34,189 nt of DNA from an uncultured Candidatus Saccharibacteria bacterium (GTDB lineage Bacteria; Patescibacteriota; WWE3; UBA101185; UBA10185). The DNA lies in NCBI GenBank assembly GCA_964527375.1, contig CAZGPL010000001.1:1-34189 (forward strand). The letters run 5' to 3'. The first letter of the stretch is position 1; every line of letters starts with the position of its first letter. The notes under the pieces are model-generated. The model made no database searches. It worked only from the letters and a program-made list of their open reading frames with translations, and was not told where the DNA came from. A program made the translations under genes and the position numbers. Shown here one piece after another: positions 1 through 27,660 of the stretch.

Positions 1-39
1 TTTTGTTGTAATAACAATACTTACAAGAGGTTTTTCCAT
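1..39 (-). CDS. 5' end of a further GT2-like glycosyltransferase gene, truncated by the window edge
   Basis: ATG at 39 (minus) reads MEKPLVSIVITTK to the edge. A hydrophobic strand 'VSIVITT' right after the start matches the N-termini of the other GT2s here (VSVIIPAY, LSIVIPVY, YSIVIPAY, IVVVIPTY). Only 13 codons are visible. Confidence 0.35.
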   Translation of the reverse strand, partial: MEKPLVSIVITTK

Positions 40-50
40 ATTAAATTTCC

Positions 51-98
51 GGGCTGAACCTAGGGTCCGACCTAGGGCTGAGCCTAGGGCTTAGCCCT
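51..98. repeat. Four tandem 12-nt units of a GC-rich dyad repeat (GGGCTGAACCta / GGGTCCGACCta / GGGCTGAGCCta / GGGCTTAGCCCta)
   Basis: Units start at 51, 63, 75 and 87, an exact 12-nt period. Each core is a 4-1-4 or 5-1-5 palindrome. The array abuts the TAG stop (97-99) of the radical SAM gene and fills most of the gap to the next ATG at 39. Confidence 0.85.
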
Positions 99-1635
99 AC
101 TTCCTCCCCTGACTTTTATCAAAATCCTTCATATGACCAAAAAACTTTTTAGCAGACATAAAATAATACTTAACATCACTCCATTTTCTGATACTAAAAA
201 TTTTTCTTAACAAATACTGGGGTGAAAAAAAGGAAGAGTACAAAGCTTGGGTTAATTCCAACAATCTTTCTTCCGAAAAAGGAATTCTCATAACGGGATT
301 CCTCATATCAAATTTCTCATAATCTTTTGGGCCGACTTTAAACCAATCATTTTTCACACATTCGTCGTAAAGTTTAGCTCCGGGATAAGGAATAACAATT
401 GTAGCCTGCATAGTATCGACATATCCTTTTTTAAATAAATCCTTGGCCTTGTTAATTGTATTCAAAGCCATTTCTTCAGTCTCCCAAGGATAACCCAGCA
501 TTACAGTAATATGAGGTTCCAACCCAGCTTCTTTCGCGGTTTTCAAATAAGGCTCAATCTCCTCAACTTTCAAACCCTTATCTAACTTATCCAATGTTTC
601 CTGATTTGCAGACTCCAAACCATACAAAATAAACCTAAAATTAGCCTTTTTCATCAACTCGCAATCCTCTTTTTTCAAAGCATTAATTCTCATGTTGCAG
701 CTGAAAACAACTTTTTTATTGTAACCAGATTCAATCATCAATTCACAAAACTTTTTTAATCTTGGACCAATATAAAAAGTACCGGCATCATCAAAAATCT
801 CCTTAACACCGTAATTATCAACGACATGTTTAACTTCAGCAAAAAGCCTTTCAGGTGAAAAAACCCTGTAAGAACCTGTTGGATACAATGTAAAATTCCA
901 AACACAAAAGGTACATCTCCCCCACCAACAATCTCTCCCTGAATACATATACGTCCCCGGTCTGTACTTGTAATTCCCATTTTCACAAGCGTAAAGCTTC
1001 CATTTAGTTAAATCTCTATCAATAAAAGGCAAAACATCAAGATTATGTTTTATCTCCATCGGACCTGAACACCAATATTTTTTAACATGTGTAGCATTTT
1101 CACTAAGATTAACTAACATATTCTTTTCCTTTCCCCAAACTCCTCCGGGCATAACTTTTCCCGTAGTTATTGAATCTAATAGGTCGACTAAAACAAAATC
1201 ATAATCACCACCTGTAATCACATAATCAACAGGACATTTTTCCATGGTCTCAATAGGAAATGTGGTAACGTGATCACCAACTATTACCACAATAAGATCG
1301 GGAAACTTGGTCTTAATTTTTTTGACAGTCTCCCAATAAATTTTAATAACCGGAGTTTTAGCTTCTATCATTAACAAATCAGGTTTTTCTTTTCTAAGCT
1401 GAGTAAACCATTCAGATAAAGTCTTTTTTTCAGCAATACCGTCCATCCAAAAAACTTCGTAACCCCTTGATTGAGCTAAAGATGCGGCATACGCAGGAAC
1501 CATCGGGTATATGAATGTAGGAGCATTAAAATACTGAAATTGTCTATTTTGAGAAAGAAGTGGCACTCCTTTATCACTTTTTATAGGTGGGTACCCTATC
1601 GCAACTTTAAATTTTTTTGCTTTTATTTTAGTCAT
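97..1635 (-). CDS. B12-binding-domain radical SAM enzyme (class B-like)
   Basis: 512 aa. The N-terminal part looks like a Rossmann-type B12-binding domain (DLLMIEAKTPVIK...IVVIVGDHVT...VITGGDYD). It is followed by a Cys triad, SGRDCWWGRCTFCVW, and a TIM-barrel-like core (FILYGLESANQETL). ATG at 1635 lies 2 nt after the upstream stop. Confidence 0.8.
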   Translation of the reverse strand: MTKIKAKKFKVAIGYPPIKSDKGVPLLSQNRQFQYFNAPTFIYPMVPAYAASLAQSRGYEVFWMDGIAEKKTLSEWFTQLRKEKPDLLMIEAKTPVIKIYWETVKKIKTKFPDLIVVIVGDHVTTFPIETMEKCPVDYVITGGDYDFVLVDLLDSITTGKVMPGGVWGKEKNMLVNLSENATHVKKYWCSGPMEIKHNLDVLPFIDRDLTKWKLYACENGNYKYRPGTYMYSGRDCWWGRCTFCVWNFTLYPTGSYRVFSPERLFAEVKHVVDNYGVKEIFDDAGTFYIGPRLKKFCELMIESGYNKKVVFSCNMRINALKKEDCELMKKANFRFILYGLESANQETLDKLDKGLKVEEIEPYLKTAKEAGLEPHITVMLGYPWETEEMALNTINKAKDLFKKGYVDTMQATIVIPYPGAKLYDECVKNDWFKVGPKDYEKFDMRNPVMRIPFSEERLLELTQALYSSFFSPQYLLRKIFSIRKWSDVKYYFMSAKKFFGHMKDFDKSQGRK

Positions 1636-1637
1636 TT

Positions 1638-2654
1638 TTAACCTTCAACGTAATTACCCGTCTTTTTATCATATTTTTTTAGCTTTAATTCGGGTTTTTT
1701 CATTATACCAATAAGAAAATTAATTCCGTAATAAATGTGAGTTAAAAAAACTCCTTTCATAAAATCAAAATGGGCTTGCTCCTGATTTTCCTCATTTTTA
1801 GTTATTTTAAAAGAAGAAAAAAATAAAATCCCAAAATAAATTAACAAAAACAAAACGTAATAAAGAGAGAAATAAGGCCAAAAAACACTTAAAATAAATC
1901 CCCCCAGTAAACCAATTGTAAAAAGAGAAGGAGCAAAATACATAGGAATTCTTGAAGTTTGAGGGAAAATTCTTGCAAACTGACCCCTGTGCTGACCGTA
2001 TCTTGAAATCTGCTTTAAATATGGTTTAAAAACTTCTCTTCGGTGATGATAAACCAAAACATCTGGATCGTAAGGAAACTTTCCTCCATGTTTTTCAACA
2101 AGATCAAGACACAACTTGGTATCCTCACCAGGCCAAAACTCAACAGGGAATCCACCAACCTCTTCAAAAGCACTTTTCCTGACAAATAAATTAACAGAAG
2201 GATAATCATCCATTAATCTTTTTTCTTCCGGTTTGTATCTGTATGTAGTTTTCCCACTAACGATAAAAGATTCAAAAAGATACCCTGACATTCTTTCCAA
2301 ATATTCAGCACCCAAAGGTGTTACCGCAGGTCCACCCAGAGCATAAACTTCAGGATCCTCAAATACTTTAGCGGCATTTTTTAACCAACTATATTCAGGA
2401 TAAGAATCATCATCCAAAAAAGCTAAAATATCTCCGGTTGCATGTTCAGCACCCAAATTACGCTTTTTCCCGGGACCCACATTACCTGATTCCAATATTT
2501 TTATTCTTGTTCCACCAAAATCGTATTCTTCTTTTTCATCTGTAATAATAAAAACTTCAAATTCCTGATAATCTAATTTCTTTATCCTTGTAATACTCTC
2601 TTTAACATAATCATTTATTTTTCTAACCGGAATGATTATTGAAAATTTAAGCAT
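1638..2654 (-). CDS. GT2 glycosyltransferase with C-terminal transmembrane anchor
   Basis: 338 aa. FSIIIPVRK strand, AFLDDDSYP (DxD) and GEDTKLC motifs. The C-terminal ~100 aa are hydrophobic (2-3 TM helices). SD-like GGAGA lies about 9 nt upstream of ATG 2654. 8-nt overlap with the upstream gene. Confidence 0.8.
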   Translation of the reverse strand: MLKFSIIIPVRKINDYVKESITRIKKLDYQEFEVFIITDEKEEYDFGGTRIKILESGNVGPGKKRNLGAEHATGDILAFLDDDSYPEYSWLKNAAKVFEDPEVYALGGPAVTPLGAEYLERMSGYLFESFIVSGKTTYRYKPEEKRLMDDYPSVNLFVRKSAFEEVGGFPVEFWPGEDTKLCLDLVEKHGGKFPYDPDVLVYHHRREVFKPYLKQISRYGQHRGQFARIFPQTSRIPMYFAPSLFTIGLLGGFILSVFWPYFSLYYVLFLLIYFGILFFSSFKITKNEENQEQAHFDFMKGVFLTHIYYGINFLIGIMKKPELKLKKYDKKTGNYVEG

Positions 2655-3474
2655 TGATAGTTTCTCCTGTATTTATTTTCATATCTAAATCTTTATCGTA
2701 TATCCATTTTCTTTTTTTACTATCATCGTAAAATTTTAAAATTCTTAAACGATAGAAAACCGCCAAAGTATCTCTTACCATATTTCTTATATTTTTATCG
2801 AATACCATAAAAGGGGTAAAGTTGGTGTTTGATTGATCCCAATTAACGTATATCGGAGATTCATATATTTTTTTAAAGCCCAAATATCTTGAAACGGAAA
2901 GTATTTCTATATCAAAAGCAAATGCTTTTACCATTAATCTGGGAAGCACCGCTTCCAAAACTTCTCTTTTAAAAACCTTCAGGCCTGATTGAGTATCCTT
3001 AACACGAACACCTAATAATGTTTTTACAAAAATATAGTACCCCCAGCTATAAATTTTTCTAATCTTAGGATAGTTTATTTTAGATGCGGGGTGTCTTTTA
3101 CTGCCAACCATTATATCGGCGTCATACCACTCAAGATGCTCCAAGATTAGAGAAATACCGTTAGGATCAATGTCCATACCGGAGTCTATAAAGGCAATGT
3201 AATCCCCTCTAGCCCTAGCCATACCATACCTTATTGCAAAACCTTTACCTTTGTTGTTCTTGTAACCTAAAACCCTTACACTTCCTCGCTTAATAGAACT
3301 AGCATTCTCAAATGTTTTATCTAGAAAATATCCGTCAACAACAACAAGTATCTCGTAACTGAAACGTGTTTCCGACATAACATCATCAATATTTCTAATA
3401 TCTTTAAGAATGGTCTTCTCTTGTTTATAGGCAGGAATTATTACTGATACCATTTTCTTTGGTTTTCTCTTCAC
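2647..3474 (-). CDS. GT2 glycosyltransferase, polyprenol-phosphate-sugar-synthase-like
   Basis: VSVIIPAYKQE, VVVDG, AFIDSGMDIDP, and VKDTQSGLKVFKRE (the DTQxGxK motif of DPM1/Alg5-like enzymes). The longest ORF starts at GTG 3474. ATG 3453 (MVSVIIPAYK) is an equally plausible true start. Confidence 0.8.
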   Translation of the reverse strand: MKRKPKKMVSVIIPAYKQEKTILKDIRNIDDVMSETRFSYEILVVVDGYFLDKTFENASSIKRGSVRVLGYKNNKGKGFAIRYGMARARGDYIAFIDSGMDIDPNGISLILEHLEWYDADIMVGSKRHPASKINYPKIRKIYSWGYYIFVKTLLGVRVKDTQSGLKVFKREVLEAVLPRLMVKAFAFDIEILSVSRYLGFKKIYESPIYVNWDQSNTNFTPFMVFDKNIRNMVRDTLAVFYRLRILKFYDDSKKRKWIYDKDLDMKINTGETINA

Positions 3475-3502
3475 ACCCTTATTTTACTACATTTTTTGAT
3501 GA

Positions 3503-3549
3503 GGGCTGAGCCCTGTGCAGGGCTCAGCCTAGCTCCGGGCTCAGCCCGG
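3503..3549. repeat. GC-rich palindromic element: 26-nt perfect palindrome plus a 15-nt palindrome
   Basis: 3504-3529, GGCTGAGCCCTG-TG-CAGGGCTCAGCC, is self-complementary except for the central dinucleotide. 3535-3549, CCGGGCT-C-AGCCCGG, is a 7-1-7 palindrome. It is built from three GGGCTSAGCC(C) units. Confidence 0.9.
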
Positions 3550-3603
3550 GAAAACCCCGAAGGCATAGGAAAAAACTAAGCTTAAAATGGGAAAATTATA
3601 GGA

Positions 3604-3631
3604 GGGCTCAGCCCTGTGCAGGGCTGAGCCC
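3604..3631. repeat. GC-rich 28-nt perfect palindrome, second copy; possible 3' hairpin of the upstream flippase gene
   Basis: GGGCTCAGCCCTG-TG-CAGGGCTGAGCCC. It starts 8 nt beyond the flippase stop (3639-3641). On the minus strand it is followed by the moderately U-rich TCCTATAATTTTCCCATTTT. It is the same as the 3504-3529 copy except for a G:C to C:G swap in both arms. Confidence 0.9.
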
Positions 3632-3638
3632 GGAAAAC

Positions 3639-4961
3639 TTAGTCCGGCAAAACTTCCAACAACTCGTTAACTTCAGAAAAACTACTAAAATCCTTTTCTC
3701 CTATTCTACTAGGAACATTAAAATAAAAATAAACAGAAAGTGAAATTAAAATAAAAACACTGACTGCAATATTAACATTTATCACATCCCACAAAGTCTC
3801 ATGAAAAATATTCAAAAGTATGTATTGAATTAAAACCCCGGGCAACAGTAATAATCCCACTTTCTTTTTGTCTATAGCCAAGAAAAACATGACTAGAAAA
3901 TTTATCAAAACATAAAACGCTACAAAAACTGAAAACAAAGGTAAATACTTCACGGAATTTTCAAATGCTTTTCCGAAAAATAAATTCGTAATAATTCCAG
4001 GGAAAATCTGATAGCAAAGTACCCCTACAACTAGAATTAAGATCAAAAGCATGAGAAGCCTTTTCAAACTTTTCATAAAACTCTTACCTCCGGCGTAAAG
4101 TGCGGTAATTTTAGGAAACATTACAACGGAAACAGCTCCGGAACCAAACAATAGTATCTTTCCAAGAGTCATGGTTCCTGCATAGTATCCCGCATCAGTT
4201 GAGTCAAAATATTTCTTCACCATTATGAGATCAACATTATTCAAAGCCATCAGAGAAAAATTTACTAAAACAACGGTAGCCCCAAAGGAAAATATTTTTT
4301 TGAAACTATCTGTCACATCTACTTTTTTAAGATTTTTTAAGTTTAAGCCCAAGATTAAAAATCCCGAAGAGAAAACCAAAAAAGAAACAATTGGAGCGGC
4401 GCTATAAACTCCTCTTAAACCAAATCCCATAAAAACAAAAATCGTAGGTATTAAAAACCTAACAAAAAGGCTGAAAATATGAAATACGGAGTATTTTTTA
4501 AACTTCTGAGTTCCCTGAAGATAGGAATTAGGAATAACTATCAAAAAACCCATCCCGACAGATATTCCAAACAAAGTTATTAAAAAACTATCCTGAATAT
4601 TAATATAACCTGAGATAAATTCCCGTAAAGAGAAAATGATAAAAAATAAAACAGACCCTACTAAAAGTGAGAGCTTAAAAGATTTAAAAAATAAAACCAT
4701 CAGTTTATTATCATCTTTTTTTGAATATATTTCGGCATTAATTTTTATCAATGCTGTTCCAAAGACTCCTGCAAAAACCCCTACCATTGAGGATAAAGAT
4801 AGAAGCGCGTTGAAAGTTCCGTAATCTTCAACTGACAACTTTCTTCCCAAAACAAACTGTAATAAATAACTAAAAACGGAACCAACTATGGTTGCGGTTC
4901 CAACCAAAGCAGTCTCCATGATATCTTTTCTCGCTCTCAAGCTTTTCAACTTATTTAGCAT
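3639..4961 (-). CDS. MOP-superfamily (Wzx-like) polysaccharide/oligosaccharide flippase
   Basis: Polytopic, roughly 12-14 hydrophobic segments. The N-terminus, MLNKLKSLRARKD...LLQFVLGRKLSVEDYGTFNAL, is typical of polysaccharide-biosynthesis (Polysacc_synt) proteins. Start is placed at ATG 4961 because GGAGG (4968-4972) sits 6 nt upstream. The longest ORF extends to 4991. Confidence 0.7.
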   Translation of the reverse strand: MLNKLKSLRARKDIMETALVGTATIVGSVFSYLLQFVLGRKLSVEDYGTFNALLSLSSMVGVFAGVFGTALIKINAEIYSKKDDNKLMVLFFKSFKLSLLVGSVLFFIIFSLREFISGYINIQDSFLITLFGISVGMGFLIVIPNSYLQGTQKFKKYSVFHIFSLFVRFLIPTIFVFMGFGLRGVYSAAPIVSFLVFSSGFLILGLNLKNLKKVDVTDSFKKIFSFGATVVLVNFSLMALNNVDLIMVKKYFDSTDAGYYAGTMTLGKILLFGSGAVSVVMFPKITALYAGGKSFMKSLKRLLMLLILILVVGVLCYQIFPGIITNLFFGKAFENSVKYLPLFSVFVAFYVLINFLVMFFLAIDKKKVGLLLLPGVLIQYILLNIFHETLWDVINVNIAVSVFILISLSVYFYFNVPSRIGEKDFSSFSEVNELLEVLPD

Positions 4962-6681
4962 AGACACCCTCCATTTCATTTTTATAAACATTGTATAAAG
5001 TAATACCTCTTAAACTAATTGAATCAAAATAACTTAACTCCATACCGCTTTCACTATTTGAAGTATCGTCCCAAACCGGATAGACGAAGTATTTTGTTCT
5101 GTCAGCAAAAGGTTTGAGTTCTTTAATGACTGCCCAAGCTCCAAATTCCCTAAAAAATGGCCATATCTGCGTATAATATTTCTCTTTAAAACCTACTGTC
5201 ATGGTGGTTTTCAAATCTTTACCAAACTTTTTATAAACTAACTCTTCAAAAGATACCCCACTTGAAAAAGCTGAACCCTGTTCTTCGGAAAGTTTTTTAA
5301 AATAATTAACTATTTCCTCCATTCCGATCAACCACTTGGGCTCTAAAACCTTAACACCCGTCTTCAAACCACCAAACATTGGATTAAAATATGAAAGATA
5401 ATCAGGATGTACATAAATATTGGTATAAAAAGCTGGAATCAGGAACAAAAGTACGGCTATAAATTTATTCCATGCCTTTTTAAGATTAATTCTATCTAAA
5501 ATCCAAATGAAAAATAGAGATGAAATTAATGAAATTACACTAAAAGCCGGCAAAATATATCTATCAAGTTTTTTTGTGGGTAAAGTTAACTGAATAAAAT
5601 AGAAAAAGATGAAAATGAAAAGAAAATCGAAAAAACTTCTCTCGTTGTCTGACATTTTTCTTCTTGTAATTAAAGCTCCGATGAACCCAATCAAAAGGTA
5701 TATGGATGATCTTAGACCCAAAACAACAAAATAAAAGCTAGGACCCGGATCTTCTATCAACTCACCAAAATAAAATTGAATATGGTCGCCCTCTACCCCT
5801 ATATCGGCTATGCCTGCGTACAATGTTTGAATTACTTTAAAGGGAATTACCCACATTGCCGGCCAAAATACAAAAAAGACTGAAATTGAAACCAATAACC
5901 ATGGGAAAAAGACTACACTAAAATCTTTTACCAATCTAAAAAAATGGCTGAAGTTAATTACAGGCCTCTCCTTAAGTAAAAGTTTATATTTCCCGTTACG
6001 GAAAAGGTACATAAACGAGGAAAGTCCGTAAAAAGGTACTAAAAATAAAGCTGAGGTTTTGGTTAGTAAGGCAAAACCTGCAAAAACACCCGAAATAATA
6101 AGCCTTTTTTTATTCTTAATATCAAGAAAATAGTAGTGCATCCAAACAACACTGGCTAGCATGAACGTGGATACCATTCCTTCGAGATGAAACATCCTAG
6201 TCAATCCTAAATAAAAAGGCTCTAAAGAAAGCAGAAGAACAGCTAAAACGGCATATCTTAAATTTAAAGCTTTTTTTAAAGCATAAAATAGAAAGGAAGT
6301 GGTTAAAGATATTGTCAGAACAACTAGAAACTTTTGAACAAAATCTAAATGAAATATCACACCAACGTCATCCCCGGCTGTTAACGAAATCCCTTTATGA
6401 GAAGCCCATAAATTGGTTATTTTCGCCCCCGCGCTTCCTGCCCACATCAGAGTCACTCCCGGATGATATTTTTGCAGAGTCGCCTCGAAATTTCCACTAA
6501 AGACACCACTTCCAAAATCATAAGATCTAGCTTTCCACCTCCAAACATCAGTATTAAAATTATCATGACCTAAGGATGGAATCCTTATCAAAACAGAAAA
6601 CACAAAAACTAATATTTCCAGGCTGAGCCCGGGGCTGAGCCCTAAAATTCCTTTTTTTTCTATTCCTGCATTCTTTTTCAT
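4951..6681 (-). CDS. GT-C-fold membrane glycosyltransferase (ArnT/PMT-like), paralog of 8370-10016
   Basis: 576 aa. About 11-13 TM segments followed by a soluble ~130-aa C-terminal domain. Acidic first-loop motif GHDNFNTDVWRW after TM1. Shares YHPGVTLMW, EPFYLG..R..HLE, LLTKTS and KKLDRYILP motifs with the 8370-10016 product. Codons 11-22 (GILGLSPGLSLE) are encoded by a copy of the GC-rich repeat. Confidence 0.7.
   Translation of the reverse strand: MKKNAGIEKKGILGLSPGLSLEILVFVFSVLIRIPSLGHDNFNTDVWRWKARSYDFGSGVFSGNFEATLQKYHPGVTLMWAGSAGAKITNLWASHKGISLTAGDDVGVIFHLDFVQKFLVVLTISLTTSFLFYALKKALNLRYAVLAVLLLSLEPFYLGLTRMFHLEGMVSTFMLASVVWMHYYFLDIKNKKRLIISGVFAGFALLTKTSALFLVPFYGLSSFMYLFRNGKYKLLLKERPVINFSHFFRLVKDFSVVFFPWLLVSISVFFVFWPAMWVIPFKVIQTLYAGIADIGVEGDHIQFYFGELIEDPGPSFYFVVLGLRSSIYLLIGFIGALITRRKMSDNERSFFDFLFIFIFFYFIQLTLPTKKLDRYILPAFSVISLISSLFFIWILDRINLKKAWNKFIAVLLFLIPAFYTNIYVHPDYLSYFNPMFGGLKTGVKVLEPKWLIGMEEIVNYFKKLSEEQGSAFSSGVSFEELVYKKFGKDLKTTMTVGFKEKYYTQIWPFFREFGAWAVIKELKPFADRTKYFVYPVWDDTSNSESGMELSYFDSISLRGITLYNVYKNEMEGVYAK
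4968..4972 (-). promoter_or_regulatory. Shine-Dalgarno GGAGG for the flippase start at 4961
   Basis: The minus strand reads GGAGGgtgtctATG. The site lies inside the last codons of the upstream GT-C gene, which suggests translational coupling. Confidence 0.6.
6616..6640. repeat. GC-rich repeat copy A (TTCCAGGCTGAGCCCGGGGCTGAGC), intragenic
   Basis: Matches 6693-6717 at 23 of 25 positions. It lies 39 nt downstream (minus sense) of the ATG at 6681, in frame within the GT-C gene. Confidence 0.85.
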
Positions 6682-6692
6682 AATATTTTTAC

Positions 6693-6717
6693 TTCCGGGC
6701 TGAGCCCGGGGCTGAAC
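6693..6717. repeat. GC-rich repeat copy B (TTCCGGGCTGAGCCCGGGGCTGAAC), intergenic
   Basis: Lies in the 40-nt gap between the stop of 6722-8383 and the ATG at 6681. Direct repeat of copy A, offset by 77 nt. Confidence 0.85.
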
Positions 6718-6721
6718 TCAA

Positions 6722-10899: not shown

Positions 10900-10900
10900 C

Positions 10901-12370: not shown

Positions 12371-12382
12371 TTTAATATCTTC

Positions 12383-14524: not shown

Positions 14525-14531
14525 ACTTTCC

Positions 14532-17990: not shown

Positions 17991-19171
17991 TTAAGTACCT
18001 CCATAAAAACTTTTTCGTATCTATCTATCATTTTACCAATTGTAAATTCTTTTTCAGCCTTTTCTTTGGAATTATCCCCTAGTTTAAACCTTAGTTCTCT
18101 ATCGTCTATCAATTGTATCATCTTCTCACTAAAGTTCTCTTTCTCCCCGGCGTTGACTAAAAACCCGGTGATACCGTCATCTACAGCATCGGAGACACCA
18201 CCGTAGTCAAAAGCTATAGTGGGAATACCTGCAAACATTGACTCCACCAAAACCATAGGAAATCCCTCCACTCTTTGGGTTGGAAAAACAAAAATATCAG
18301 GTTGGATTTTTTTTATAAATTCATAATGAGGCATACGACCGTGAAAAATCACCTTCTCTTGAATATTTAGCTTTCCCACCTTATTTTTAGCTTCTTCTAA
18401 ACAAGGACCTTCCCCTACTACATGAAAAATAATATCTCTATTGATATTTTTCACCATGTCCAAAATTGTTAAGATACCTTTTGATTTCTCCACCCTACCT
18501 ATAAAATAGATATTTACTATGCCCCCAACGTTTCTTTTTTCTTTTTCACTTTTAAATAAATTAGGATCAATTCCATTATGAATCACCTCAACTTTATCAG
18601 GGCTTACGAAAGTTTCGGAAATGAGAGATTTTTTCACGAATTCTGAAACAGCCACCACTTTATCTGAGTGTAAGACAAATCTCCTCTGTCTTCCAAAATA
18701 TTGTCTAAAAAAATATTGCGTATTTCTTATGAGCCAGTAAATATCTTTGAAATTGGATATATTTTTTAAAAAGGTTATGTACTCTCCGGAAGTTGTTCCA
18801 TGAGAAATAGAAACAGCTTTAATTCCTAATTTAAATTTATTCTCGATAATACTTTCCGCGGAGGCGCTTTGTCCTAAAACCAAATCAAAATTTTCTTTTT
18901 CGTGGATATTTGAGAAAACTTCCAAAGACTTTCTTGTCCAACTATCTTTATCAAAACTGGCAAAAATATATTTTTTATACTCTGCATCAACAAAAACGTA
19001 TTTAACACCATTTTGCTCGAAAGTTTCCATTTCTAACTCCCTTTTCGGAGAAAAAATTGTTATCTGGTGACCTCTTTTTGCAAGACCTTCACATAAAGCT
19101 AAATTCTGTGTCTCCAAACCTCCGTGGTGTTTGTGTAAAGTGGTCGATTTTGTAAATACAGCAATTTTCAT
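17987..19171 (-). CDS. GT4 (GT-B fold) glycosyltransferase
   Basis: 394 aa. MKIAVFT...HHGGLETQNLALCEGLAKRGHQITIF at the N-terminus. Canonical EX7E motif (RVEGFPMVLVESMFAGIPTIA) and GITGFLV. Confidence 0.85.
   Translation of the reverse strand: MKIAVFTKSTTLHKHHGGLETQNLALCEGLAKRGHQITIFSPKRELEMETFEQNGVKYVFVDAEYKKYIFASFDKDSWTRKSLEVFSNIHEKENFDLVLGQSASAESIIENKFKLGIKAVSISHGTTSGEYITFLKNISNFKDIYWLIRNTQYFFRQYFGRQRRFVLHSDKVVAVSEFVKKSLISETFVSPDKVEVIHNGIDPNLFKSEKEKRNVGGIVNIYFIGRVEKSKGILTILDMVKNINRDIIFHVVGEGPCLEEAKNKVGKLNIQEKVIFHGRMPHYEFIKKIQPDIFVFPTQRVEGFPMVLVESMFAGIPTIAFDYGGVSDAVDDGITGFLVNAGEKENFSEKMIQLIDDRELRFKLGDNSKEKAEKEFTIGKMIDRYEKVFMEVLK
17998..18002 (-). promoter_or_regulatory. Shine-Dalgarno GGAGG for the GTG start at 17990
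   Basis: The minus strand reads GGAGGtacttaaGTG, embedded in the last codons (MEVLK) of the upstream GT4. Confidence 0.6.
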
Positions 19172-19186
19172 TGTTTAAATAATAAT

Positions 19187-20437
19187 TTAATAATTCCTCA
19201 AAAGCATATTTTCCAGTTGAACAATATTTTTATCAAGAGAAAATTTTTCTGAAACCTTATTATAAAGATTATTTCCTAGTTTTTGCGAGAGATCCTTATC
19301 ATTTAAAATCAGTTCCAATTTATCTGCCATGATGTTGGAATCTTTTTGGGGTACAACCAATCCGGTTTGATTATGAATTATAAGCTCTCCGGTACTACCG
19401 GCGTCAGTTGCTACAACAGGAATTTTAAATATTCCTGCTTCAAACAATACGTTAGCAACTCCGTCAACGTCACCTTCTTTCGTCTCTATACTTGGGAACG
19501 AAAGCACACTTGCCGATTTAAGATGTAGTAACGTATCTTCGTTGGAAAGACCTTTGTTTTCACCTAATATTACTACATCATCTTGTAAATCAAGTTCATT
19601 TATTAAATTTAAAAGCTCGGGATAAAGCGGTCCGGAACCAATTATTTTAATCTCAAAATTAACTTCCCGTTCCTTAAGATTCCTAGCTGATTTGATTAAA
19701 TACTCAAGTCCCTTTTTCTCGACTAATCTTCCTATAGCTAAAATCAAAGGTTTTTCAGGCCTATAATCTCTATCTTCAACACCTTTTTTAATCTTTTCAA
19801 TATCAACACCATGATAAGCAAGATAAATGTTACTTTTATCAAGATCTCCTGCTTGCTTAAGAACGTAGTTATAGGCATTTTCATTACAGATACTGATGAA
19901 TTTTGCTGTTTGTACTTTTTCTTTTGGATATTGTGCCTCAACTAAAATATCTTTTGCATGTGCTGAAATTCCATAAGGAACATTCAATATTTTTGAAATG
20001 TACATAACCATAGTTGAGGGTTCTGAAAAAAAATGCGCTAATATAAAATCGGGTTTGAACTTGGAAAATTTCTCTGCGTATGCACAAGATTTTAAAAATA
20101 CGTAGAGAACTTTCATAAATCCGGGGTTCTTAACTTTCCCATGATTTTTTTTGTTCTCTTTTATTGATTTTAAAATCTCTGAAAAAGCTTTTTTAATATA
20201 TGATAATTTGGAAACAAAAAAAAGAAAAAATTTGAAAGTATCTTTTAGAGAAATTCTCTCATATGTAACCTTATCTAATAAAACTTCAGAAAGATACCCC
20301 CTTCCTTTTTTTAATGAAAAAACATGCAAATCAACATTCCCGCGCTCGACCAATTTTGCTATCTCGCGCTCAATAAAAGTTTCGGTTAAAACCGGAAACT
20401 CGGGAATAAATACAAGTATTCTTTTTTTAGTTTCCAT
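19187..20437 (-). CDS. GT4 (GT-B fold) glycosyltransferase
   Basis: 416 aa. ILVFIPEFPVLTETFIEREI at the N-terminus. GRLVEKKGLEYLI, IIGSGPL, EGDVDGVANVLFEAGIFKIPVVATDAGS, QTGLVVP. Confidence 0.8.
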   Translation of the reverse strand: METKKRILVFIPEFPVLTETFIEREIAKLVERGNVDLHVFSLKKGRGYLSEVLLDKVTYERISLKDTFKFFLFFVSKLSYIKKAFSEILKSIKENKKNHGKVKNPGFMKVLYVFLKSCAYAEKFSKFKPDFILAHFFSEPSTMVMYISKILNVPYGISAHAKDILVEAQYPKEKVQTAKFISICNENAYNYVLKQAGDLDKSNIYLAYHGVDIEKIKKGVEDRDYRPEKPLILAIGRLVEKKGLEYLIKSARNLKEREVNFEIKIIGSGPLYPELLNLINELDLQDDVVILGENKGLSNEDTLLHLKSASVLSFPSIETKEGDVDGVANVLFEAGIFKIPVVATDAGSTGELIIHNQTGLVVPQKDSNIMADKLELILNDKDLSQKLGNNLYNKVSEKFSLDKNIVQLENMLLRNY

Positions 20438-21797
20438 TCTTTAATATTACACCGGGAGTACCCGCAGGTCTCTTATCTAAAAGCTCCACACCACCGGTCC
20501 TTTTACCTACCGCAAAATATGTAAATCCCGAAGATTCAACTTTTTTTCTATCCAAAAGATTTCTCCCATCAAATATAACCGGATTCTTTAACGTGGATTT
20601 AACTTTTTCCAGGTCAATGTTTGCAAACTCCTTCCATTCGGTTAGTATTGCCAAAGCATCGGCATCTTCAATAACCTCGTATTTGTCCAAACAATACTTT
20701 ATACTTGTTTCTCCCAATACCTTTTTGGCGTTGTACATCGCTTGGGGATCATACACTTTTATAAATGCTCCTAAACCTCTAAGTATTTTCACAATTTCTA
20801 TTGCTACCGAATCTCTTATATCATCCGTGTTCTCTTTAAATGCCAAACCCAGAATCCCAAAGGTTTTTTCTGACAAATTGTTCCCAAAAAACCTTACTAT
20901 TTTAGATACAAAATAGCTTTTTTGAATCTCATTAACCTCCATTACCCCTCTTAAAAGTTTGAAGTCGTATGCCTGATCGGAAGATGTTTTATAAAGAGCT
21001 GATACGTCTTTTGGAAAACAACTACCGCCATAACCAATTCCTGCGTTTAGAAATTTGGGCCCTATTCTACTATCCAACCCCATTCCTTTTGCTACTACCG
21101 AAACATCGGCACCTGACCTCTCACATATTTGAGCCATCTCATTAATAAAGGATATTTTTGAAGCAAGAAAAGCATTAGAGGCGTATTTAACCATTTCCGC
21201 TGACTTCAAATCACACTCTACGATAGGTTTACCTAGATGTTCGTAAAGACTTCTCATAACGGTAAGGGCTCTTTCAGAATCTGATCCAATAACTGTCCTG
21301 TCGGGATTTCTCATATCCTCAACTGAGTAGCCTTCCCTTAAAAATTCTGGGTTAGAAACAATGTCAAAATCCACATGATAGGTAAGATTTTCTTTTATAA
21401 CTTTTTTAACTTTTTCGTTTGTTCCAACAGGAACCGTGCTTTTAGTTACAATAACTTTGTAACCATCCAAATTCTTACCTATGTCTTCGGCAACTTTCCA
21501 AACTGCAGATAAATCTGCATCCCCTGTCTCACTTTGAGGTGTTCCTACACAAATAAAAACTAATTCTGAATTTCTAACACCCTCAGAAAGAGAGGTGGTA
21601 AAAGAAAGCCTTTTTTCGGCAATGTTTCTCAGAACTATCTCAGACAGACCGGGTTCATAAATAGGCATCTCTCCTTTTTTTATTCTTTCAATTTTTTCCG
21701 CGTCGATGTCAACACCAATTACTTCATTCCCCCAATCAGAAAAAATAGCCGCTCCAACTAAACCAACGTATCCTGTTCCTATAACGCATATTTTCAT
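20427..21797 (-). CDS. ugd: UDP-glucose 6-dehydrogenase
   Basis: MKICVIGTGYVGLV NAD fold. Catalytic-Cys motif GYGGSCFPKD. LGLAFKENTDDIRDS in the C-terminal UDP-binding domain. The longest ORF begins at TTG 21815. ATG 21797 gives the usual MKIxVIGxGYVG N-terminus. Confidence 0.9.
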   Translation of the reverse strand: MKICVIGTGYVGLVGAAIFSDWGNEVIGVDIDAEKIERIKKGEMPIYEPGLSEIVLRNIAEKRLSFTTSLSEGVRNSELVFICVGTPQSETGDADLSAVWKVAEDIGKNLDGYKVIVTKSTVPVGTNEKVKKVIKENLTYHVDFDIVSNPEFLREGYSVEDMRNPDRTVIGSDSERALTVMRSLYEHLGKPIVECDLKSAEMVKYASNAFLASKISFINEMAQICERSGADVSVVAKGMGLDSRIGPKFLNAGIGYGGSCFPKDVSALYKTSSDQAYDFKLLRGVMEVNEIQKSYFVSKIVRFFGNNLSEKTFGILGLAFKENTDDIRDSVAIEIVKILRGLGAFIKVYDPQAMYNAKKVLGETSIKYCLDKYEVIEDADALAILTEWKEFANIDLEKVKSTLKNPVIFDGRNLLDRKKVESSGFTYFAVGKRTGGVELLDKRPAGTPGVILKNGN

Positions 21798-21823
21798 AAG
21801 ATAATTTAACTCCAATTTATTAC

Positions 21824-22603
21824 TTAGTAGATACTATTTTGCGGAGTCTTTGGCAGTTTGTACTTTCCCCCGATATAATTCAACCTGACCTTTAGAACGT
21901 CAAAAGCCATTTTAATACTATCTCTTATCGGACTCAATCTTTTAGATTTAACATAAACCCAAACAACAGGTATTTGCTTAATACTATACCCCAACTTCTT
22001 AGCCAAATACAAAACTTCAACATCCCAAGCTCCTAAATAAGGTTTATTGGATTCTTTCGCACTATCACCATATATTAATAACCTACTAAAAATATCTTTA
22101 GCCGGTTGTTTTTTAAAGATTTTAAAACCACACTGACTGTCTTGAATTCCCGGTAAAGCAACTATTTGAACCAGAAAATTAAAAACTCTACCCATCAAAT
22201 GTCGGTGAAAAGGCTCTCCGACCCTTTTAGCCCCAATACCCTCTCTGCTACCAATAACGACATCAAAATCATGTTCTAAAGCCCACACACTAAATTTTTT
22301 GAGATCTTCTATTGGAGCTGAAAGATCAGCATCAGCCATGTATATCAAATCTCCTTCAGCTCTCATCATACCGGTCCAAACAGCGTATCCTTTACCTTTA
22401 TGAGGATTATCTATCAATAAAACCTCGGGATTATCTTTTGCATATTCAGATACTTTAGAAGAAGTCGAATCAGAACTACCATCATTTACTACAATAACCT
22501 CAAAAGAACCACAGAAATTTCTCATAAAATTAACAACCTGAGTTAGTGTAGATGTAATCTTGTCTTCTTCATTATAAGCTGGAATGACTATAGAATATTC
22601 CAT
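21824..22603 (-). CDS. GT2 glycosyltransferase, dolichyl/polyprenyl-phosphate beta-glucosyltransferase-like (Alg5-type)
   Basis: 259 aa. YSIVIPAYNEEDKI, VIVVNDGSSDST, YMADADLSAPIED, GSREG, GIQDSQCGFKIFKK. TAATG overlap with the upstream gene. Confidence 0.85.
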   Translation of the reverse strand: MEYSIVIPAYNEEDKITSTLTQVVNFMRNFCGSFEVIVVNDGSSDSTSSKVSEYAKDNPEVLLIDNPHKGKGYAVWTGMMRAEGDLIYMADADLSAPIEDLKKFSVWALEHDFDVVIGSREGIGAKRVGEPFHRHLMGRVFNFLVQIVALPGIQDSQCGFKIFKKQPAKDIFSRLLIYGDSAKESNKPYLGAWDVEVLYLAKKLGYSIKQIPVVWVYVKSKRLSPIRDSIKMAFDVLKVRLNYIGGKYKLPKTPQNSIY

Positions 22604-23730
22604 TAATTTTTTCCCTTCCAGATTATTTTACTATAAACTACAAAATTCCAGAAAAGTCCAAAAACTATACCTATAAAAAAAGCTGTGTTGGAGATAAAAA
22701 AAGTATCTCCAAATTTTGTGATTGAAAATTTTATTAAATGAGAACGCAGGAATATTGGAAAATATGAAGATACGATATATATTACAAAACTTAGAACTCT
22801 GTTTTTAGTCCCTTCGATTTTATTTTTCTTAAATGACCAAAAATTATTCAACAAAAAGGTGGTTATCATAGCTATAAAACCCGAAATTAGAGAGGAAGTT
22901 CTTGAGTTTTTTATTAACAATCTTAATAAATTAAAAAGCCCGGAATCAACGAAAAGTCCAATGAAACCGACGGCACAAAATTTTAGGAATTTTTGAGTAG
23001 CCTCTTCCTTAAGACGTAAACTCAAAACCACTCTTAAAGAATCTTTCAAATTATTTTTTTCCATCTTAGAACTACCCTCATCTCTTATCCCAAACTGTAT
23101 AGGTACTTCTTTTATCTTTGCTCCCGCTTTATGCATCTTATATAAAAGGTCCATTTTATATGCAAAACCTTTTGAAAGAATATTATCCAAATCTATGGAA
23201 TCAACAAAACCTTTAACTCTGGAAACTTTATATCCTGTTGTAAAATCATTTACACCATGAATACCTAAAATGATCTTGGAAACAGTATTTCCAAGCTTAC
23301 TAAACATTTTTCTCTTAAACTCCCACTCTTTGGGGATGCTTCCCCCCTTTACAAATCTGGAACCAATGACGTAATCATAGCCGTTGTCAATTTCTTTAAT
23401 TAAATTTTTTAGTTCCTTAGGATCATGTTGGAAATCGGCGTCCATCTCTACTAAAACATCAGCTCTAAGCTCTTTCATAGCGAATCTGAAACCATAAACA
23501 TAGGCAGCACCCAAACCTGCTTTCTTCTCTTCCATCAGCAAATAAACAAAATTGTATTTCTTCATCTTCTCTCTAACAATATCCGCAGTTCCGTCAGGGG
23601 AATTTCCCTCAACAACAAGCAATTTCATACTGTGTGATGGAATTTTTTTAAACTCAATATCTAGAGCATCAATTAAACGCCCTATATTATCTGCCTCATT
23701 ATATGTAGGAATAACAACTACAATTTTCAT
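22603..23730 (-). CDS. Bifunctional GT2 (polyprenol-phosphate mannose/sugar synthase, DPM1-like) fused to a GtrA-family membrane domain
   Basis: 375 aa. IVVVIPTYNEADNI, VVEGNSPDGTADI, EMDADFQHDP, GSRFVKGGS, DFTTGYK. From about residue 245, four TM helices (FLKFCAVGFIGLFVDSGLFNLL...FWSFKKNKI...) are typical of GtrA. Confidence 0.85.
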   Translation of the reverse strand: MKIVVVIPTYNEADNIGRLIDALDIEFKKIPSHSMKLLVVEGNSPDGTADIVREKMKKYNFVYLLMEEKKAGLGAAYVYGFRFAMKELRADVLVEMDADFQHDPKELKNLIKEIDNGYDYVIGSRFVKGGSIPKEWEFKRKMFSKLGNTVSKIILGIHGVNDFTTGYKVSRVKGFVDSIDLDNILSKGFAYKMDLLYKMHKAGAKIKEVPIQFGIRDEGSSKMEKNNLKDSLRVVLSLRLKEEATQKFLKFCAVGFIGLFVDSGLFNLLRLLIKNSRTSSLISGFIAMITTFLLNNFWSFKKNKIEGTKNRVLSFVIYIVSSYFPIFLRSHLIKFSITKFGDTFFISNTAFFIGIVFGLFWNFVVYSKIIWKGKN

Positions 23731-23733: not shown

Positions 23734-23994
23734 TTAAAAACCAAGAACAGTATAAAAAAGAGAAAAAGCCAACAAAGCATAAAGTATATATTCAAAAGCA
23801 ATGCTCTTCGACAATTTCCCTCTTAACCAATGGTGAATTATACCCCAAAAAATGTAAAAAAGAGAAGCCATACCCGAAAGGATTATTAGAGAGGTTTTAT
23901 TAAACCTGTTTATGTATGTAAGAACAACGAAGAGTGTAACTGCTACCATTAGAATAAAATACTCAACCCTATGTTCCTTTAAATTTTCCATCAT
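23734..23994 (-). CDS. Small membrane protein (3 predicted TM helices), function unknown
   Basis: 86 aa. Three hydrophobic stretches. Tightly packed between neighbours (3-nt and 12-nt gaps). No recognisable motif. Confidence 0.5.
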   Translation of the reverse strand: MMENLKEHRVEYFILMVAVTLFVVLTYINRFNKTSLIILSGMASLFYIFWGIIHHWLRGKLSKSIAFEYILYALLAFSLFYTVLGF

Positions 23995-25668: not shown

Positions 25669-25673
25669 AATAA

Positions 25674-25940: not shown

Positions 25941-25966
25941 ATAAATATTCTATCAGGAATTTTCTA

Positions 25967-27659: not shown

Positions 27660-27660
27660 A

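Follow-up and report, generated by a model that had tools for sequence, protein, structure and literature searches.

Glycoproteins or a glycosylated S-layer were suggested for WWE3 by Kantor et al. (2013, PMC3812714), whose only remark on the glycosyltransferases of these bacteria concerned their abundance. In the literature searched, we found no description of the locus presented here or of DUF2079. The window analysed, i.e., the whole 34,189-nt stretch of contig CAZGPL010000001.1 (positions 1 to 34,189), contains at 1-23730 a block of genes whose products very probably glycosylate the cell surface from lipid-carried sugars. We estimate at about 0.75 the probability that this block is the conserved core of a WWE3 (Katanobacteria) island and that the island is a lipid-carrier-dependent envelope-glycosylation locus.

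Gene content and organization

The block consisted of 18 complete ORFs and one 13-codon gene start, that is, 19 genes rather than the 22 originally predicted. As anticipated, all were on the same strand (minus) with almost no spacers: ORFs covered 98.7% of the bases, and the distance between them ranged from -44 to +57 nt, with the exception of one 164-nt gap (3475-3638). The window was one-stranded and tightly packed throughout, unrelated ribosomal genes included, and scans for consensus promoters and terminators performed no better than on shuffled sequence. Each component of the island is a member of a known family; specific NCBIfam equivalog cutoffs were all missed.

GT2 enzymes

Four GT2s were closest to polyprenyl-phosphate sugar synthases, as had been proposed. 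For each, the best solved relative was the Pyrococcus furiosus DPMS, with ArnC and GtrB matched as well, and their NCBIfam matches were AglJ, PgfS, ArnC, PpgS and a Dol-P-hexose transferase. The protein encoded at 22603-23730, a fusion of a GT2 with a four-TM GtrA/DPMS domain (Glycos_transf_2, 85.9 bits; GtrA_DPMS_TM, 49.5 bits), could be aligned over its full length with P. furiosus DPMS (5MLZ; residues 1-371 versus 23-372, E 2.7e-41), and is a full-length DPMS homolog, TM domain included. The expected GtrA domain was present, but as the membrane domain of this DPMS-type protein and not as a separate flippase gene.

The three other synthase-like GT2s were soluble. The first, at 21824-22603, matched Glycos_transf_2 with 103.5 bits and, in the PDB, P. 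furiosus DPMS (6e-18), ArnC (2e-13) and GtrB (6e-12). The second, at 14532-15218 (GT2_228; Glycos_transf_2, 122.5 bits), resembled AglJ (121 bits, below cutoff), P. furiosus DPMS (1e-18, query residues 1-207) and, over nearly its full length, ArnC (2e-15). The third, at 2647-3474, had 5MLZ as its best PDB match (3e-13), weaker matches to GtrB and ArnC, NCBIfam matches to PgfS, AglJ and PpgS that were all below cutoff, and 59-83% identity in relatives.

One further membrane-anchored GT2 had been predicted, and it was found at 1638-2654 (Glycos_transf_2, 67.7 bits), with C-terminal TM helices (hydrophobic segments at residues 240-280). This is an ordinary, non-synthase GT2, whose closest PDB relatives were GalT1 and TarS, not DPMS, and whose NCBIfam matches, MftF (106 bits) and AglG (60 bits), were both below cutoff.

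GT-C transferases

In five polytopic proteins, the first TM helix was closely followed by an acidic motif, and all of the motifs originally listed were present and conserved in orthologs. These proteins are GT-C transferases and not transporters, given Pfam matches (PMT_2, PMT and DUF2079), the paralogy of two of them, invariant acidic residues in the first loop and, for two others, confident AF2 models that at E <= 0.001 matched only GT-C enzymes in the PDB. The GT-C families found by Pfam scans were limited to PMT_2, PMT, DUF2079 and a sub-threshold STT3; no island GT-C matched the mycobacterial GT-C families.

The protein at 4951-6681 (576 aa) exceeded the gathering scores of both PMT_2 (34 bits) and PMT (30.4 bits), and its FNTD45 motif was invariant in 10 orthologs. 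That at 6722-8383 (GTC_553a) was the most PMT-like of the five (PMT_2, 55.6 bits), with H46-P47-D48-E49 invariant in orthologs; its ortholog profile had yeast Pmt1 as best PDB match (1.3e-7), followed by AglB, and its Pfam STT3 match reached only E 0.011. The third, at 8370-10031 (553b), scored 25.3 bits for PMT_2 versus a gathering score of 26.1; it is a paralog of the 576-aa protein (27% identity over ~470 aa, E 1e-31), and residues D50 and N53-P54-D55 were invariant in its orthologs.

The two remaining proteins gave confident AlphaFold models, for which significant PDB matches were exclusively GT-C enzymes. The DUF2079 protein (12383-14524; Pfam, 109.9 bits) gave a model with a pLDDT of 84.8 and a pTM of 0.82, whose top 14 Foldseek matches in the PDB were all GT-C (AglB at 4.6e-8, STT3, DPY19, PglB), ArnT being matched at only 1e-2. 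D42 and D47, located after TM1, were invariant in 42 homologs. The likeness of this protein to oligosaccharyltransferases is a global GT-C similarity (TM ~0.4), and the WWDYG motif was absent from it. Its extracytoplasmic C-terminal domain is lineage-restricted; full-length matches to this domain mostly formed the end of ~660-735-aa proteins, the rest being shorter and probably fragmentary.

The protein at 15215-16834 (GTC_539), a divergent ArnT-like transferase, scored only 17.9 bits for PMT_2. Its model (pLDDT 87.9, pTM 0.89) matched ArnT (5f15) at 5e-8 with a TM of 0.57, the top 28 matches all being GT-C, and many of its orthologs had PMT_2 or PMT matches and the NCBI name GT39. E41-W42-G43-D44 was invariant in orthologs; since these are 535 aa long, translation probably begins not at the TTG but a few codons further on.

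GT4 enzymes, Ugd, flippases and radical SAM enzyme

The three GT4s and the Ugd of the original prediction were recovered by Pfam. The GT4s, all putatively cytoplasmic, were encoded at 16791-17990 (GT4_399; Glycos_transf_1, 69.3 bits; Glyco_transf_4, 63.2 bits), which reached no NCBIfam equivalog; at 17987-19171 (Glycos_transf_1, 119.1 bits), with BshA as best NCBIfam match (120 bits, below cutoff); and at 19187-20437 (Glycos_transf_1, 100.2 bits), with EpsE (135 bits) and WcaL (101 bits) as best matches, both below cutoff. The sequence at 20427-21815 is firmly assigned to UDP-glucose 6-dehydrogenase, the putative source of UDP-glucuronate, with all three UDPG_MGDP_dh domains, 479.5 bits for TIGR03026 (above cutoff) and 563 bits for TuaD.

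The two MOP-superfamily (Wzx-like) flippases and the UPF0104 flippase-like protein were likewise identified with scores above curated cutoffs. The first MOP protein, at 3639-4991, was polytopic and exceeded the gathering scores of Polysacc_synt_3 (55.2 bits) and Polysacc_synt (39.9 bits); the second, at 10901-12370, scored 70.9 and 63.2 bits, respectively. The UPF0104 protein, which is MprF-flippase-like (9994-10899), matched LPG_synthase_TM (157.5 bits) and the TIGR00374 flippase-like domain (80.7 bits versus a cutoff of 43.2).

The predicted B12-type radical SAM enzyme, at 97-1635, matched Radical_SAM (64.3 bits) and came near the gathering score for B12-binding (30.7 versus 32.1 bits). This HpnJ/BchE-like, class B type enzyme had HpnJ as its best NCBIfam match, nearly full length (158 bits, the cutoff of 577.6 lying far above). 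Its WWE3- or Patescibacteria-named homologs were 64-92% identical, and the cysteine motif Cx4Cx2C (CWW[NGA][RK]C[TIV]FC) was found in 120/120 of the homologs listed.

Conservation in related loci

Related loci from GTDB genomes and metagenome contigs were compared. Gene order in the island was kept in all longer related loci of Patescibacteria/WWE3, in agreement with the predicted synteny, and the arrangement is no chance juxtaposition; synteny persisted down to ~44% protein identity (DUF2079 protein). The CPR origin that had been proposed is right: homologs of island proteins bore the names WWE3 or Patescibacteria, and in the window L30 was missing from its place between the S5 and L15 genes.

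The predicted ends at 1 and 23730 did not hold, as the island of relatives runs on past position 1. The 13-codon start at 39..1 (minus strand), MEKPLVSIVITTK, is similar to the N-terminus, MTLPFVSVVISTKNEE, of the GT2 next after the radical SAM gene of the close relative L017, as expected for the start of a sixth GT2; a GT2 also follows the radical SAM position in L011, L012 and L013. Past this edge, relatives carried variable glycosyltransferases, methyltransferases and sugar-nucleotide enzymes, in a downstream tail (GT2, GT4, methyltransferase, DegT, epimerase and acetyltransferase genes) that varied even among close relatives. Such a variable tail is typical for surface-glycan loci.

Two relatives differed within the core. 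In L018, Ugd was down to a 33-aa remnant and another gene stood in place of the UPF0104 protein, so both are dispensable in this one relative. In L005, GT2_228 and the adjoining GTC_539 were both absent; because they were lost together, they behave as a donor-synthase/transferase pair, which supports a modular design.

Proposed pathway and alternative readings

The comparisons above show which folds and families the proteins have, which motifs they carry and that they are syntenic; the substrates, order of steps and acceptor given below are inferred from family membership. On the cytoplasmic side, Ugd would supply UDP-glucuronate, and the three GT4s, the membrane-anchored GT2 and the strain-variable downstream set (glycosyltransferases, methyltransferases and sugar-nucleotide enzymes) may assemble a lipid-linked oligosaccharide. 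In parallel, the four DPMS/ArnC/GtrB-like GT2s would load single sugars onto polyprenyl monophosphate. The two Wzx-like flippases and the MprF-flippase-like protein would move lipid-linked sugars across the membrane, outside of which the five GT-Cs would transfer carrier sugars to an extracytoplasmic acceptor, with each GT-C probably responsible for a single sugar or linkage. The radical SAM enzyme might modify a sugar or the carrier. The general logic originally proposed, to build, flip and glycosylate outside from polyprenol-phosphate sugars, is well supported. Against the proposed pathway count the lack of any priming phosphoglycosyltransferase, polymerase or ligase family in the window and in ~10 kb downstream in relatives, and the dispensability of Ugd and the UPF0104 protein in L018.

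As the acceptor, we tentatively suggest a glycoprotein envelope (surface proteins with their glycans) rather than a lipoglycan of the LAM type, at somewhat less than even odds. The DUF2079 model was closest to protein glycosyltransferases (AglB, STT3, PglB, DPY19), although it differs from oligosaccharyltransferases in the missing WWDYG, and the profile of GTC_553a, with its invariant D48-E49 pair, was closest to another, yeast Pmt1. The glycoproteins or S-layer suggested by Kantor et al. (2013) point the same way. PMT_2-type enzymes also act on lipid A and polysaccharides, so the lean towards proteins is weak.

A wall-associated or capsular heteropolysaccharide is rather unlikely. It would follow a Wzx-dependent route: a phosphoglycosyltransferase from another locus would start an Und-PP-linked repeat unit, the MOP proteins would flip it, and the GT-Cs would polymerise and decorate it outside. 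The two MOP flippases above Pfam cutoffs, GT4s resembling EpsE, WcaL, PglJ and TuaC, an Ugd resembling TuaD of teichuronic acid synthesis, a downstream GT/methyltransferase tail like that of O-antigen or capsule loci, and the weak likeness of the DUF2079 C-terminal beta-sandwich to the Wzt carbohydrate-binding domain (E 4e-3) all fit it, as does the peptidoglycan pathway of WWE3, reported not to be complete (Kantor et al. 2013, PMC3812714). However, no priming phosphoglycosyltransferase, Wzy, Wzz, export family, or WaaL-type or LCP ligase was found in the window or in the flanks of relatives (~10 kb downstream), and the two GT-Cs closest to protein glycosyltransferases point elsewhere.

A lipomannan/LAM-like lipoglycan seems improbable. 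Here, the GT4s would make a glycolipid primer (e.g., GlcA-diacylglycerol or phosphatidylinositol), to be flipped and elongated outside by the GT-Cs with polyprenyl-phosphate sugars. The component logic fits (GT4, Ugd, Ppm-like GT2, several GT-Cs), the lack of a phosphoglycosyltransferase is compatible with a primer needing none, and GT4_399 weakly matched diacylglycerol glucosyltransferases and LTA-anchor glycosyltransferases (21-28 bits). The analogy originally drawn with lipomannan/LAM and a GlcA-diacylglycerol anchor is nevertheless not supported: none of the GT4s matched a specific glycolipid synthase above cutoff, and they were most similar in NCBIfam to enzymes of the EPS, Pgl, BshA or MshA type; for the GT-Cs, only PMT_2, PMT and DUF2079 were found; and L018 keeps the rest of the island with its Ugd remnant, which rules out GlcA as a universal anchor sugar. 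To our knowledge, the established LM/LAM route does not involve two Wzx-like flippases.

Independent synthase, flippase and GT-C modules with different targets, brought together only by genome compaction and without a single product, are very improbable, even though loss of the GT2_228/GTC_539 pair left the rest undisturbed, Ugd and UPF0104 are individually dispensable and the packing extends to ribosomal genes, since a ~19-gene order kept down to ~44% identity would hardly be expected if the genes were not functionally coupled, and four synthases, three flippase candidates and five GT-Cs form no clean triplets.

Upstream neighbours

A conserved 86-aa three-TM protein (23734-23994, minus strand) was observed directly upstream of the island in seven relatives (L002, L004, L005, L007, L008, L009 and L018). 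It had three predicted hydrophobic segments and no family match in Pfam or NCBIfam, and is possibly an accessory subunit. A membrane-anchored CAP-domain protein (24007-25026, minus strand; Pfam CAP, 63.6 bits) was syntenic in six (L002, L004, L005, L007, L008 and L018). It is a constant upstream neighbour whose membership of the island is uncertain; its CAP domain and its conserved C-terminal TM hairpin were joined by a hypervariable, acidic, Ser/Thr/Pro-rich linker.

Gene content and layout of the island

ORF calling placed the coding content of the entire 34-kb window on the minus strand. The same-strand packing proposed in the original prediction for positions 1-23730 (the island) was borne out: all ORFs of the island lie on the minus strand and cover 98.7% of it, with intergenic spacers of -44 to +57 nt and a single exception, a 164-nt gap at 3475-3638. 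That prediction had counted 22 genes; we found 18 complete ORFs plus a truncated one, of which only the initial 13 codons fall within the window (39..1), giving 19 genes. The bigger overlaps between ORFs are probably due in part to over-extended ORF starts, as in the polytopic protein GTC_539 (539 aa in the window, versus 535 aa for its orthologs).

According to Pfam, and starting from the first gene in transcription order, these minus-strand ORFs encode a GT2 fused to a GtrA/DPMS transmembrane (TM) domain (22603-23730), a GT2 (21824-22603), Ugd (20427-21815), three GT4 proteins (19187-20437, 17987-19171, and 16791-17990), GTC_539, with a weak PMT_2 likeness (15215-16834), a further GT2 (GT2_228, 14532-15218), a DUF2079 protein (12383-14524), a MOP flippase (10901-12370), an LPG_synthase_TM/UPF0104 protein (9994-10899), three PMT_2-type proteins (8370-10031, 6722-8383, and 4951-6681), a second MOP flippase (3639-4991), a GT2 (2647-3474), a GT2 with a C-terminal membrane anchor (1638-2654), and a B12-type radical SAM enzyme (97-1635). 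All of these families are known or catalogued.

Consensus scans for promoters and terminators yielded site numbers not above those of shuffled sequence. The spacer at 3475-3638, the sole sizeable one in the island, may divide it into two transcription units; in the terminator-pattern scan, a short GC-rich hairpin was observed at 3615-3603 on the minus strand. Searching the window for Rfam families and tRNAs gave no match.

Five polytopic proteins of the GT-C superfamily

The five polytopic proteins, previously proposed as GT-C-like, all belong to the GT-C superfamily, two on the basis of predicted structure and three on the basis of Pfam, paralogy, or profile match. Between 6 and 14 hydrophobic segments were predicted in each. 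The acidic motifs expected in the first loop were indeed located just after TM1 in all five proteins, and ortholog alignments revealed invariant acidic residues at these positions (by protein: D45; D48-E49; D50/D55; D42/D47; E41/D44).

With respect to the Pfam PMT_2 gathering threshold (PF13231, 26.1 bits; a CAZy GT39-GT83-like class), the 576-aa protein (4951-6681) scored 34.0 bits and GTC_553a (6722-8383) 55.6 bits; one of these two passed PMT as well. GTC_553b (8370-10031) scored 25.3 bits, 0.8 bit short of the threshold, and its 27% identity to the 576-aa protein across ~470 aa (E 1e-31) makes it a clear paralog of the latter. GTC_539 reached 17.9 bits; many of its orthologs carry PF13231 or PF02366, and NCBI names them GT39. 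When the ortholog profile of GTC_553a was compared with PDB sequences, yeast Pmt1 was the best match (1.3e-7) and AglB was also found; the pair D48-E49 in its first loop is invariant among orthologs. It also gave a sub-threshold STT3 Pfam match (E 0.011, 15.8 bits versus a gathering score of 24.5). A WWD or WWDYG-like motif was absent from all five GT-C proteins.

Single-sequence and profile searches against PDB sequences gave nothing useful for the two doubtful members, the DUF2079 protein and GTC_539, so we modelled their structures, using alignments of 42 homologs each, and compared the models with the PDB by Foldseek. The GTC_539 model (pLDDT 87.9, pTM 0.89) had ArnT as its best match (5e-8, TM 0.57), and each of the top 28 matches was a GT-C protein. 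For the DUF2079 model (pLDDT 84.8, pTM 0.82), all 14 significant matches were GT-C proteins, with AglB (4.6e-8) followed by STT3, DPY19, and PglB; ArnT was matched at 1e-2 only. DUF2079, an uncharacterised family, thereby gains a predicted GT-C fold and a pathway context. Its assignment as an oligosaccharyltransferase was rejected, as it has neither a WWDYG motif nor an STT3 domain and the likeness is at the fold level only.

The C-terminal 244 aa of the DUF2079 protein (12386-13117) had full-length matches that lay mostly at the end of proteins ~660-735 aa in length. A part of this domain, ~50 aa long, was repeatedly, but weakly, matched by cadherin-repeat proteins of giant size (2000-6500 aa); these matches were many and short, and were taken as generic beta-sandwich or compositional similarity. 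The beta-sandwich of the model exhibited a weak likeness to NPC2/ML domains and to the Wzt carbohydrate-binding domain.

Sugar synthases, cytoplasmic enzymes, and flippases

Four GT2s had been proposed to be polyprenyl-phosphate sugar synthases, and this class assignment held. The closest solved structure for each was the dolichol-phosphate mannose synthase (DPMS) of Pyrococcus furiosus, and ArnC and GtrB were matched too. NCBIfam matches of the GT2s included AglJ, PgfS, ArnC, PpgS, and Dol-P-hexose transferase; none of the equivalog cutoffs for ArnC, GtrB, AglJ, PpgS, or PgfS was reached (for example, 121 versus 325 for AglJ and 66 versus 529 for ArnC), and because all scores were far under these cutoffs, the sugars cannot be named. 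Homology thus read supports the synthase class of the four GT2s and no specific enzyme identity.

The 375-aa protein at 22603-23730 exhibited Glycos_transf_2 and GtrA_DPMS_TM domains and a DAD motif, and it aligned end to end, membrane domain included, with the P. furiosus structure 5MLZ (E 2.7e-41, residues 1-371 versus 23-372). With its GT2 domain, DXD motif, four-TM GtrA/DPMS domain, and full-length homology, it corresponds to a DPMS-type synthase. The GtrA domain of the original prediction does exist, fused to this GT2, but not as a separate flippase: since the protein matches DPMS over its full length, the domain is best read as the DPMS membrane module, and not necessarily as a flippase. 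The additional membrane-anchored GT2 that had been proposed (338 aa, 1638-2654) is present with its anchor at the C-terminus, and its relatives are GalT1 and TarS.

The best NCBIfam matches of the GT4 proteins were generic. The assignment of Ugd as a UDP-glucose 6-dehydrogenase is firm, with all three UDPG_MGDP_dh domains present and a TIGR03026 score of 479.5 bits versus a cutoff of 189.8; the TuaD equivalog score was below its cutoff (563 versus 700). Both MOP flippases are polytopic and scored above the gathering thresholds of Polysacc_synt or Polysacc_synt_3.

The radical SAM enzyme: strong conservation and a Cx4Cx2C motif

The radical SAM enzyme (97-1635) shared 64-92% identity with its homologs, which places it among the most conserved island proteins. 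Its Radical_SAM domain passed the threshold, the B12-binding domain scored 30.7 versus 32.1, and the HpnJ score was 157.9 bits versus a cutoff of 577.6. The cluster motif was Cx4Cx2C (CWW[NGA][RK]C[TIV]FC) and not the canonical CX3CX2C in 120 out of the 120 homologs among the matches listed. As judged from these features, the protein is HpnJ/BchE-like, with a class-B-like architecture, and is not HpnJ. The analysis thus draws attention to a radical SAM enzyme that combines high conservation with an unusual cluster motif. Weak HpnJ, HpnL, and HpnB matches were read as a resemblance at the family level, and not as a sign of hopanoid chemistry.

Conservation of the island among relatives

Exact look-up of the DUF2079 and radical SAM proteins of the window returned no contig, and that of the DPMS-like protein 3-kb contigs only; flanks were therefore read from relatives. 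The MAGs that supplied the homologs bear the names candidate division WWE3 or Patescibacteria. In a tblastn comparison with 19 related loci, synteny was confirmed: the same gene order was observed wherever the contig was long enough, down to 44% DUF2079 identity, and it takes in two genes in constant upstream positions, which encode a membrane protein with a CAP domain and a three-TM protein of 86 aa. Conservation across relatives was highest for the radical SAM enzyme, Ugd, and the GT2s of synthase type (about 50-92% identity) and lower for the faster-diverging GT-C proteins (36-69%).

Some relatives have lost individual genes. The adjacent GT2_228 and GTC_539 are both missing in one of them (L005 9927-10001), and this joint loss suggests that they form a donor-synthase/transferase pair. 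In another (L018 3261-3362 and 13655-14446), all that is left of Ugd is a 33-aa remnant, and the UPF0104 position is taken by a 263-aa protein with a weak methyltransferase-domain match only.

The start of a sixth GT2, noted earlier at the window edge, matched the GT2 that follows the radical SAM gene in relatives, and the island does extend past this edge. Beyond that GT2, relatives carry at least 7-10 kb more, with GT2 and GT4 genes, several methyltransferases (including Methyltransf_21), an epimerase/dehydratase, a DegT aminotransferase, acetyltransferases, and an asparagine-synthase-like gene (regions read: L011 11608-21605; L012 10041-17225; L014 6044-21683; L017 11554-21557). The tail of L014, a distant relative, encodes a 764-aa YfhO-like protein. 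Because this tail differs even among close relatives, the layout is that of a conserved core followed by a strain-variable tail. Such differences suggest that strains vary in their surface glycans, which would bear on host or phage recognition.

WWE3-type assemblies comprised contigs of up to ~0.9 Mb, and one Patescibacteria contig measured 1.1 Mb, which indicates that the genomes are small. The island, with at least 19 conserved genes, or ~30 with the variable tail, thus represents several percent of the genome. No paper was returned when the literature was searched for DUF2079 or for GT-C proteins in Patescibacteria, and other searches gave general remarks only; in the literature searched, we found no description of this gene arrangement, of its being conserved in a CPR class, or of a GT-C fold and pathway context for DUF2079.

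Proposed mechanism and comparison with known systems

Folds, families, motifs, and synteny together support the island as a lipid-carrier-dependent extracytoplasmic glycosylation system. In the mechanism that we propose, for which substrates, order of steps, and acceptor are those we infer, cytoplasmic assembly would be followed by polyprenyl-phosphate sugar synthesis, flipping, and transfer outside the cell by the GT-C enzymes. Neither a priming phosphoglycosyltransferase nor Wzy, Wzz, WaaL, or an LCP ligase was detected in the window or in the sampled flanks of relatives; in L011-L014 and L017-L019, the genes called likewise included no priming enzyme, Wzy, or chain-length regulator. This leads to two readings: either the primer enzyme is encoded elsewhere, or polyprenyl monophosphate is the carrier on which the glycan is built, beginning with an AglJ-like product. 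The first situation is found in many O-antigen loci, where the primer gene wecA lies outside the locus, and the second in haloarchaeal N-glycosylation, where the glycan is assembled on polyprenyl monophosphate from the AglJ product.

Among known systems, the three-component systems are GtrA/GtrB/GtrX (O-antigen modification), CsbB/GtcA/YfhO (teichoic acid), and ArnC/ArnEF/ArnT (lipid A), with PgfS/PgfM, which glycosylates Streptococcus mutans adhesins, being of the same type. In these, a GT2 charges polyprenyl phosphate with one sugar, which is moved by a small flippase and then transferred, outside, by a GT-C enzyme. The four island GT2s likewise match DPMS, ArnC, GtrB, and PgfS, and the fold of GTC_539 is nearest to ArnT. 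However, the island combines four synthases and five GT-C proteins in one array, adds three GT4s, Ugd, two Wzx-like flippases, and a radical SAM enzyme, and the window contains neither a stand-alone GtrA gene nor a YfhO-family protein.

The Agl pathway of Haloferax volcanii (AglJ, AglG, AglM, AglR, AglD, AglS, and AglB), responsible for archaeal S-layer N-glycosylation, uses a dolichyl monophosphate carrier without a phosphoglycosyltransferase; a UDP-glucose dehydrogenase feeds hexuronic acids into it, and a MOP-type protein and a Dol-P-Man-using GT-C enzyme serve its outer steps. Window proteins matched AglJ (121 and 72 bits), AglG (60 bits), and AglM (382 bits), the closest solved relative of the DPMS-like enzyme is archaeal, and the DUF2079 model is nearest to AglB. 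These matches are nevertheless far under equivalog cutoffs, there is no WWDYG-bearing STT3/AglB in the island, and the organism is a bacterium. By analogy, the island would work as a multiplied form of the Gtr/Arn/CsbB-YfhO/Pgf systems and of the Agl pathway of archaea, joined to a branch of Wzx type.

As to the acceptor, we lean weakly towards protein-linked glycans, because oligosaccharyltransferases and DPY19 are the nearest relatives in fold to the DUF2079 model, and because GTC_553a, with its invariant D48-E49, is closest to Pmt1. Protein O-mannosylation (PMT/GT39 with DPMS/Ppm1), known in fungi and Actinobacteria, shares with the island this Pmt1 match and residue pair, a full-length DPMS homolog in the array, and the GT39 naming of the GTC_539 orthologs; on the other hand, the island has no MIR domains, protein acceptors are putative only, and PMT_2 also spans lipid-acting ArnT-like enzymes. 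The leaning is a weak one since PMT_2-type enzymes act on lipids and glycans too. It is also based on the proposal of a glycosylated S-layer or glycoproteins for WWE3 by Kantor et al. 2013 (PMC3812714).

Wzx/Wzy-dependent O-antigen and capsule loci resemble the island in their MOP flippases, several GT4s and GT2s, nucleotide-sugar enzymes, and strain-variable genes. The island differs from them in being dominated by GT-C proteins; Wzy, Wzz, a priming enzyme, and a ligase were looked for in the window and in the called genes of relatives, and none was detected.

The original prediction had drawn an analogy with lipomannan/lipoarabinomannan (LM/LAM), which we downgraded. In Corynebacterineae LM/LAM and arabinogalactan synthesis (PimA/MgtA, Ppm1, PimE/Mpt/Emb/Aft), GT-C enzymes elongate the polymer outside from GT2-made polyprenyl-phosphate sugars, and the island similarly has several GT-C proteins and a GT2 synthase logic. 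Unlike that machinery, its GT4s are generic, with no specific PimA- or MgtA-like member, its GT-C proteins fall outside the mycobacterial families, matching only PMT_2, PMT, DUF2079, and a sub-threshold STT3, and it has Wzx-like flippases and one compact conserved array. No PimA/PimB/MgtA-type GT4 and no GT87/Emb/Aft-type GT-C was found among the island proteins, and Ugd is a mere remnant in L018. Membership in the LM/LAM machinery, the STT3 oligosaccharyltransferases, and the HpnJ family was rejected, the defining features of each having been looked for and not found.

A more far-reaching version of the proposed system, which we regard as improbable, is that the island makes the main WWE3 envelope structure, a coat of glycoprotein or heteroglycan of the archaeal kind. 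In that case, polyprenyl monophosphate would carry the growing structure with no phosphoglycosyltransferase involved, DUF2079 would form a new oligosaccharyltransferase class, and the Cx4Cx2C enzyme would produce an unusual (C-methylated, deoxygenated, or ring-contracted) sugar. WWE3 and other CPR cells are thought to be host-attached. We know of no experimental work on the surface chemistry of WWE3/Katanobacteria, and of very little on CPR bacteria generally; for an entire uncultured bacterial class, the island offers a concrete and testable list of the components that would make the envelope glycan. The WWE3 peptidoglycan pathway was reported to be incomplete (PMC3812714).

Upstream flank

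Directly upstream of the DPMS-like gene, we observed a conserved 86-aa protein with three hydrophobic segments (23734-23994). Family searches returned no match for it, and it could be a small synthase subunit or a flippase component. From its N-terminus, the CAP-domain protein (24007-25026), in a constant position just upstream of the island, comprises a TM helix, a domain of the CAP/YkwD type, and a linker of ~70 aa that is acidic, rich in Ser/Thr/Pro, and hypervariable; the TM hairpin at its C-terminus is, by contrast, highly conserved. It is plausible, as a speculation, that this linker is an O-glycosylation target.

The remainder of the window (25051-34189) is occupied by a ribosomal cluster on the same strand, with the island directly downstream. 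Its order is L23, L2, S19, L22, S3, L16, L29, S17, L14, L24, L5, S14, S8, L6, L18, S5, L15, SecY, YbaB-like, and Adk. The L30 gene is absent between S5 (27661-28140) and L15 (27216-27659), as are the usual infA, S13, S11, S4, rpoA, and L17 genes after Adk. Linkage of the island to SecY/Adk (or map) is kept in two relatives (L005 and L018). An 88-aa YbaB/EbfC-family DNA-binding protein (25674-25940) is wedged between SecY and Adk, and was 92% identical in L005, the highest value in that comparison.
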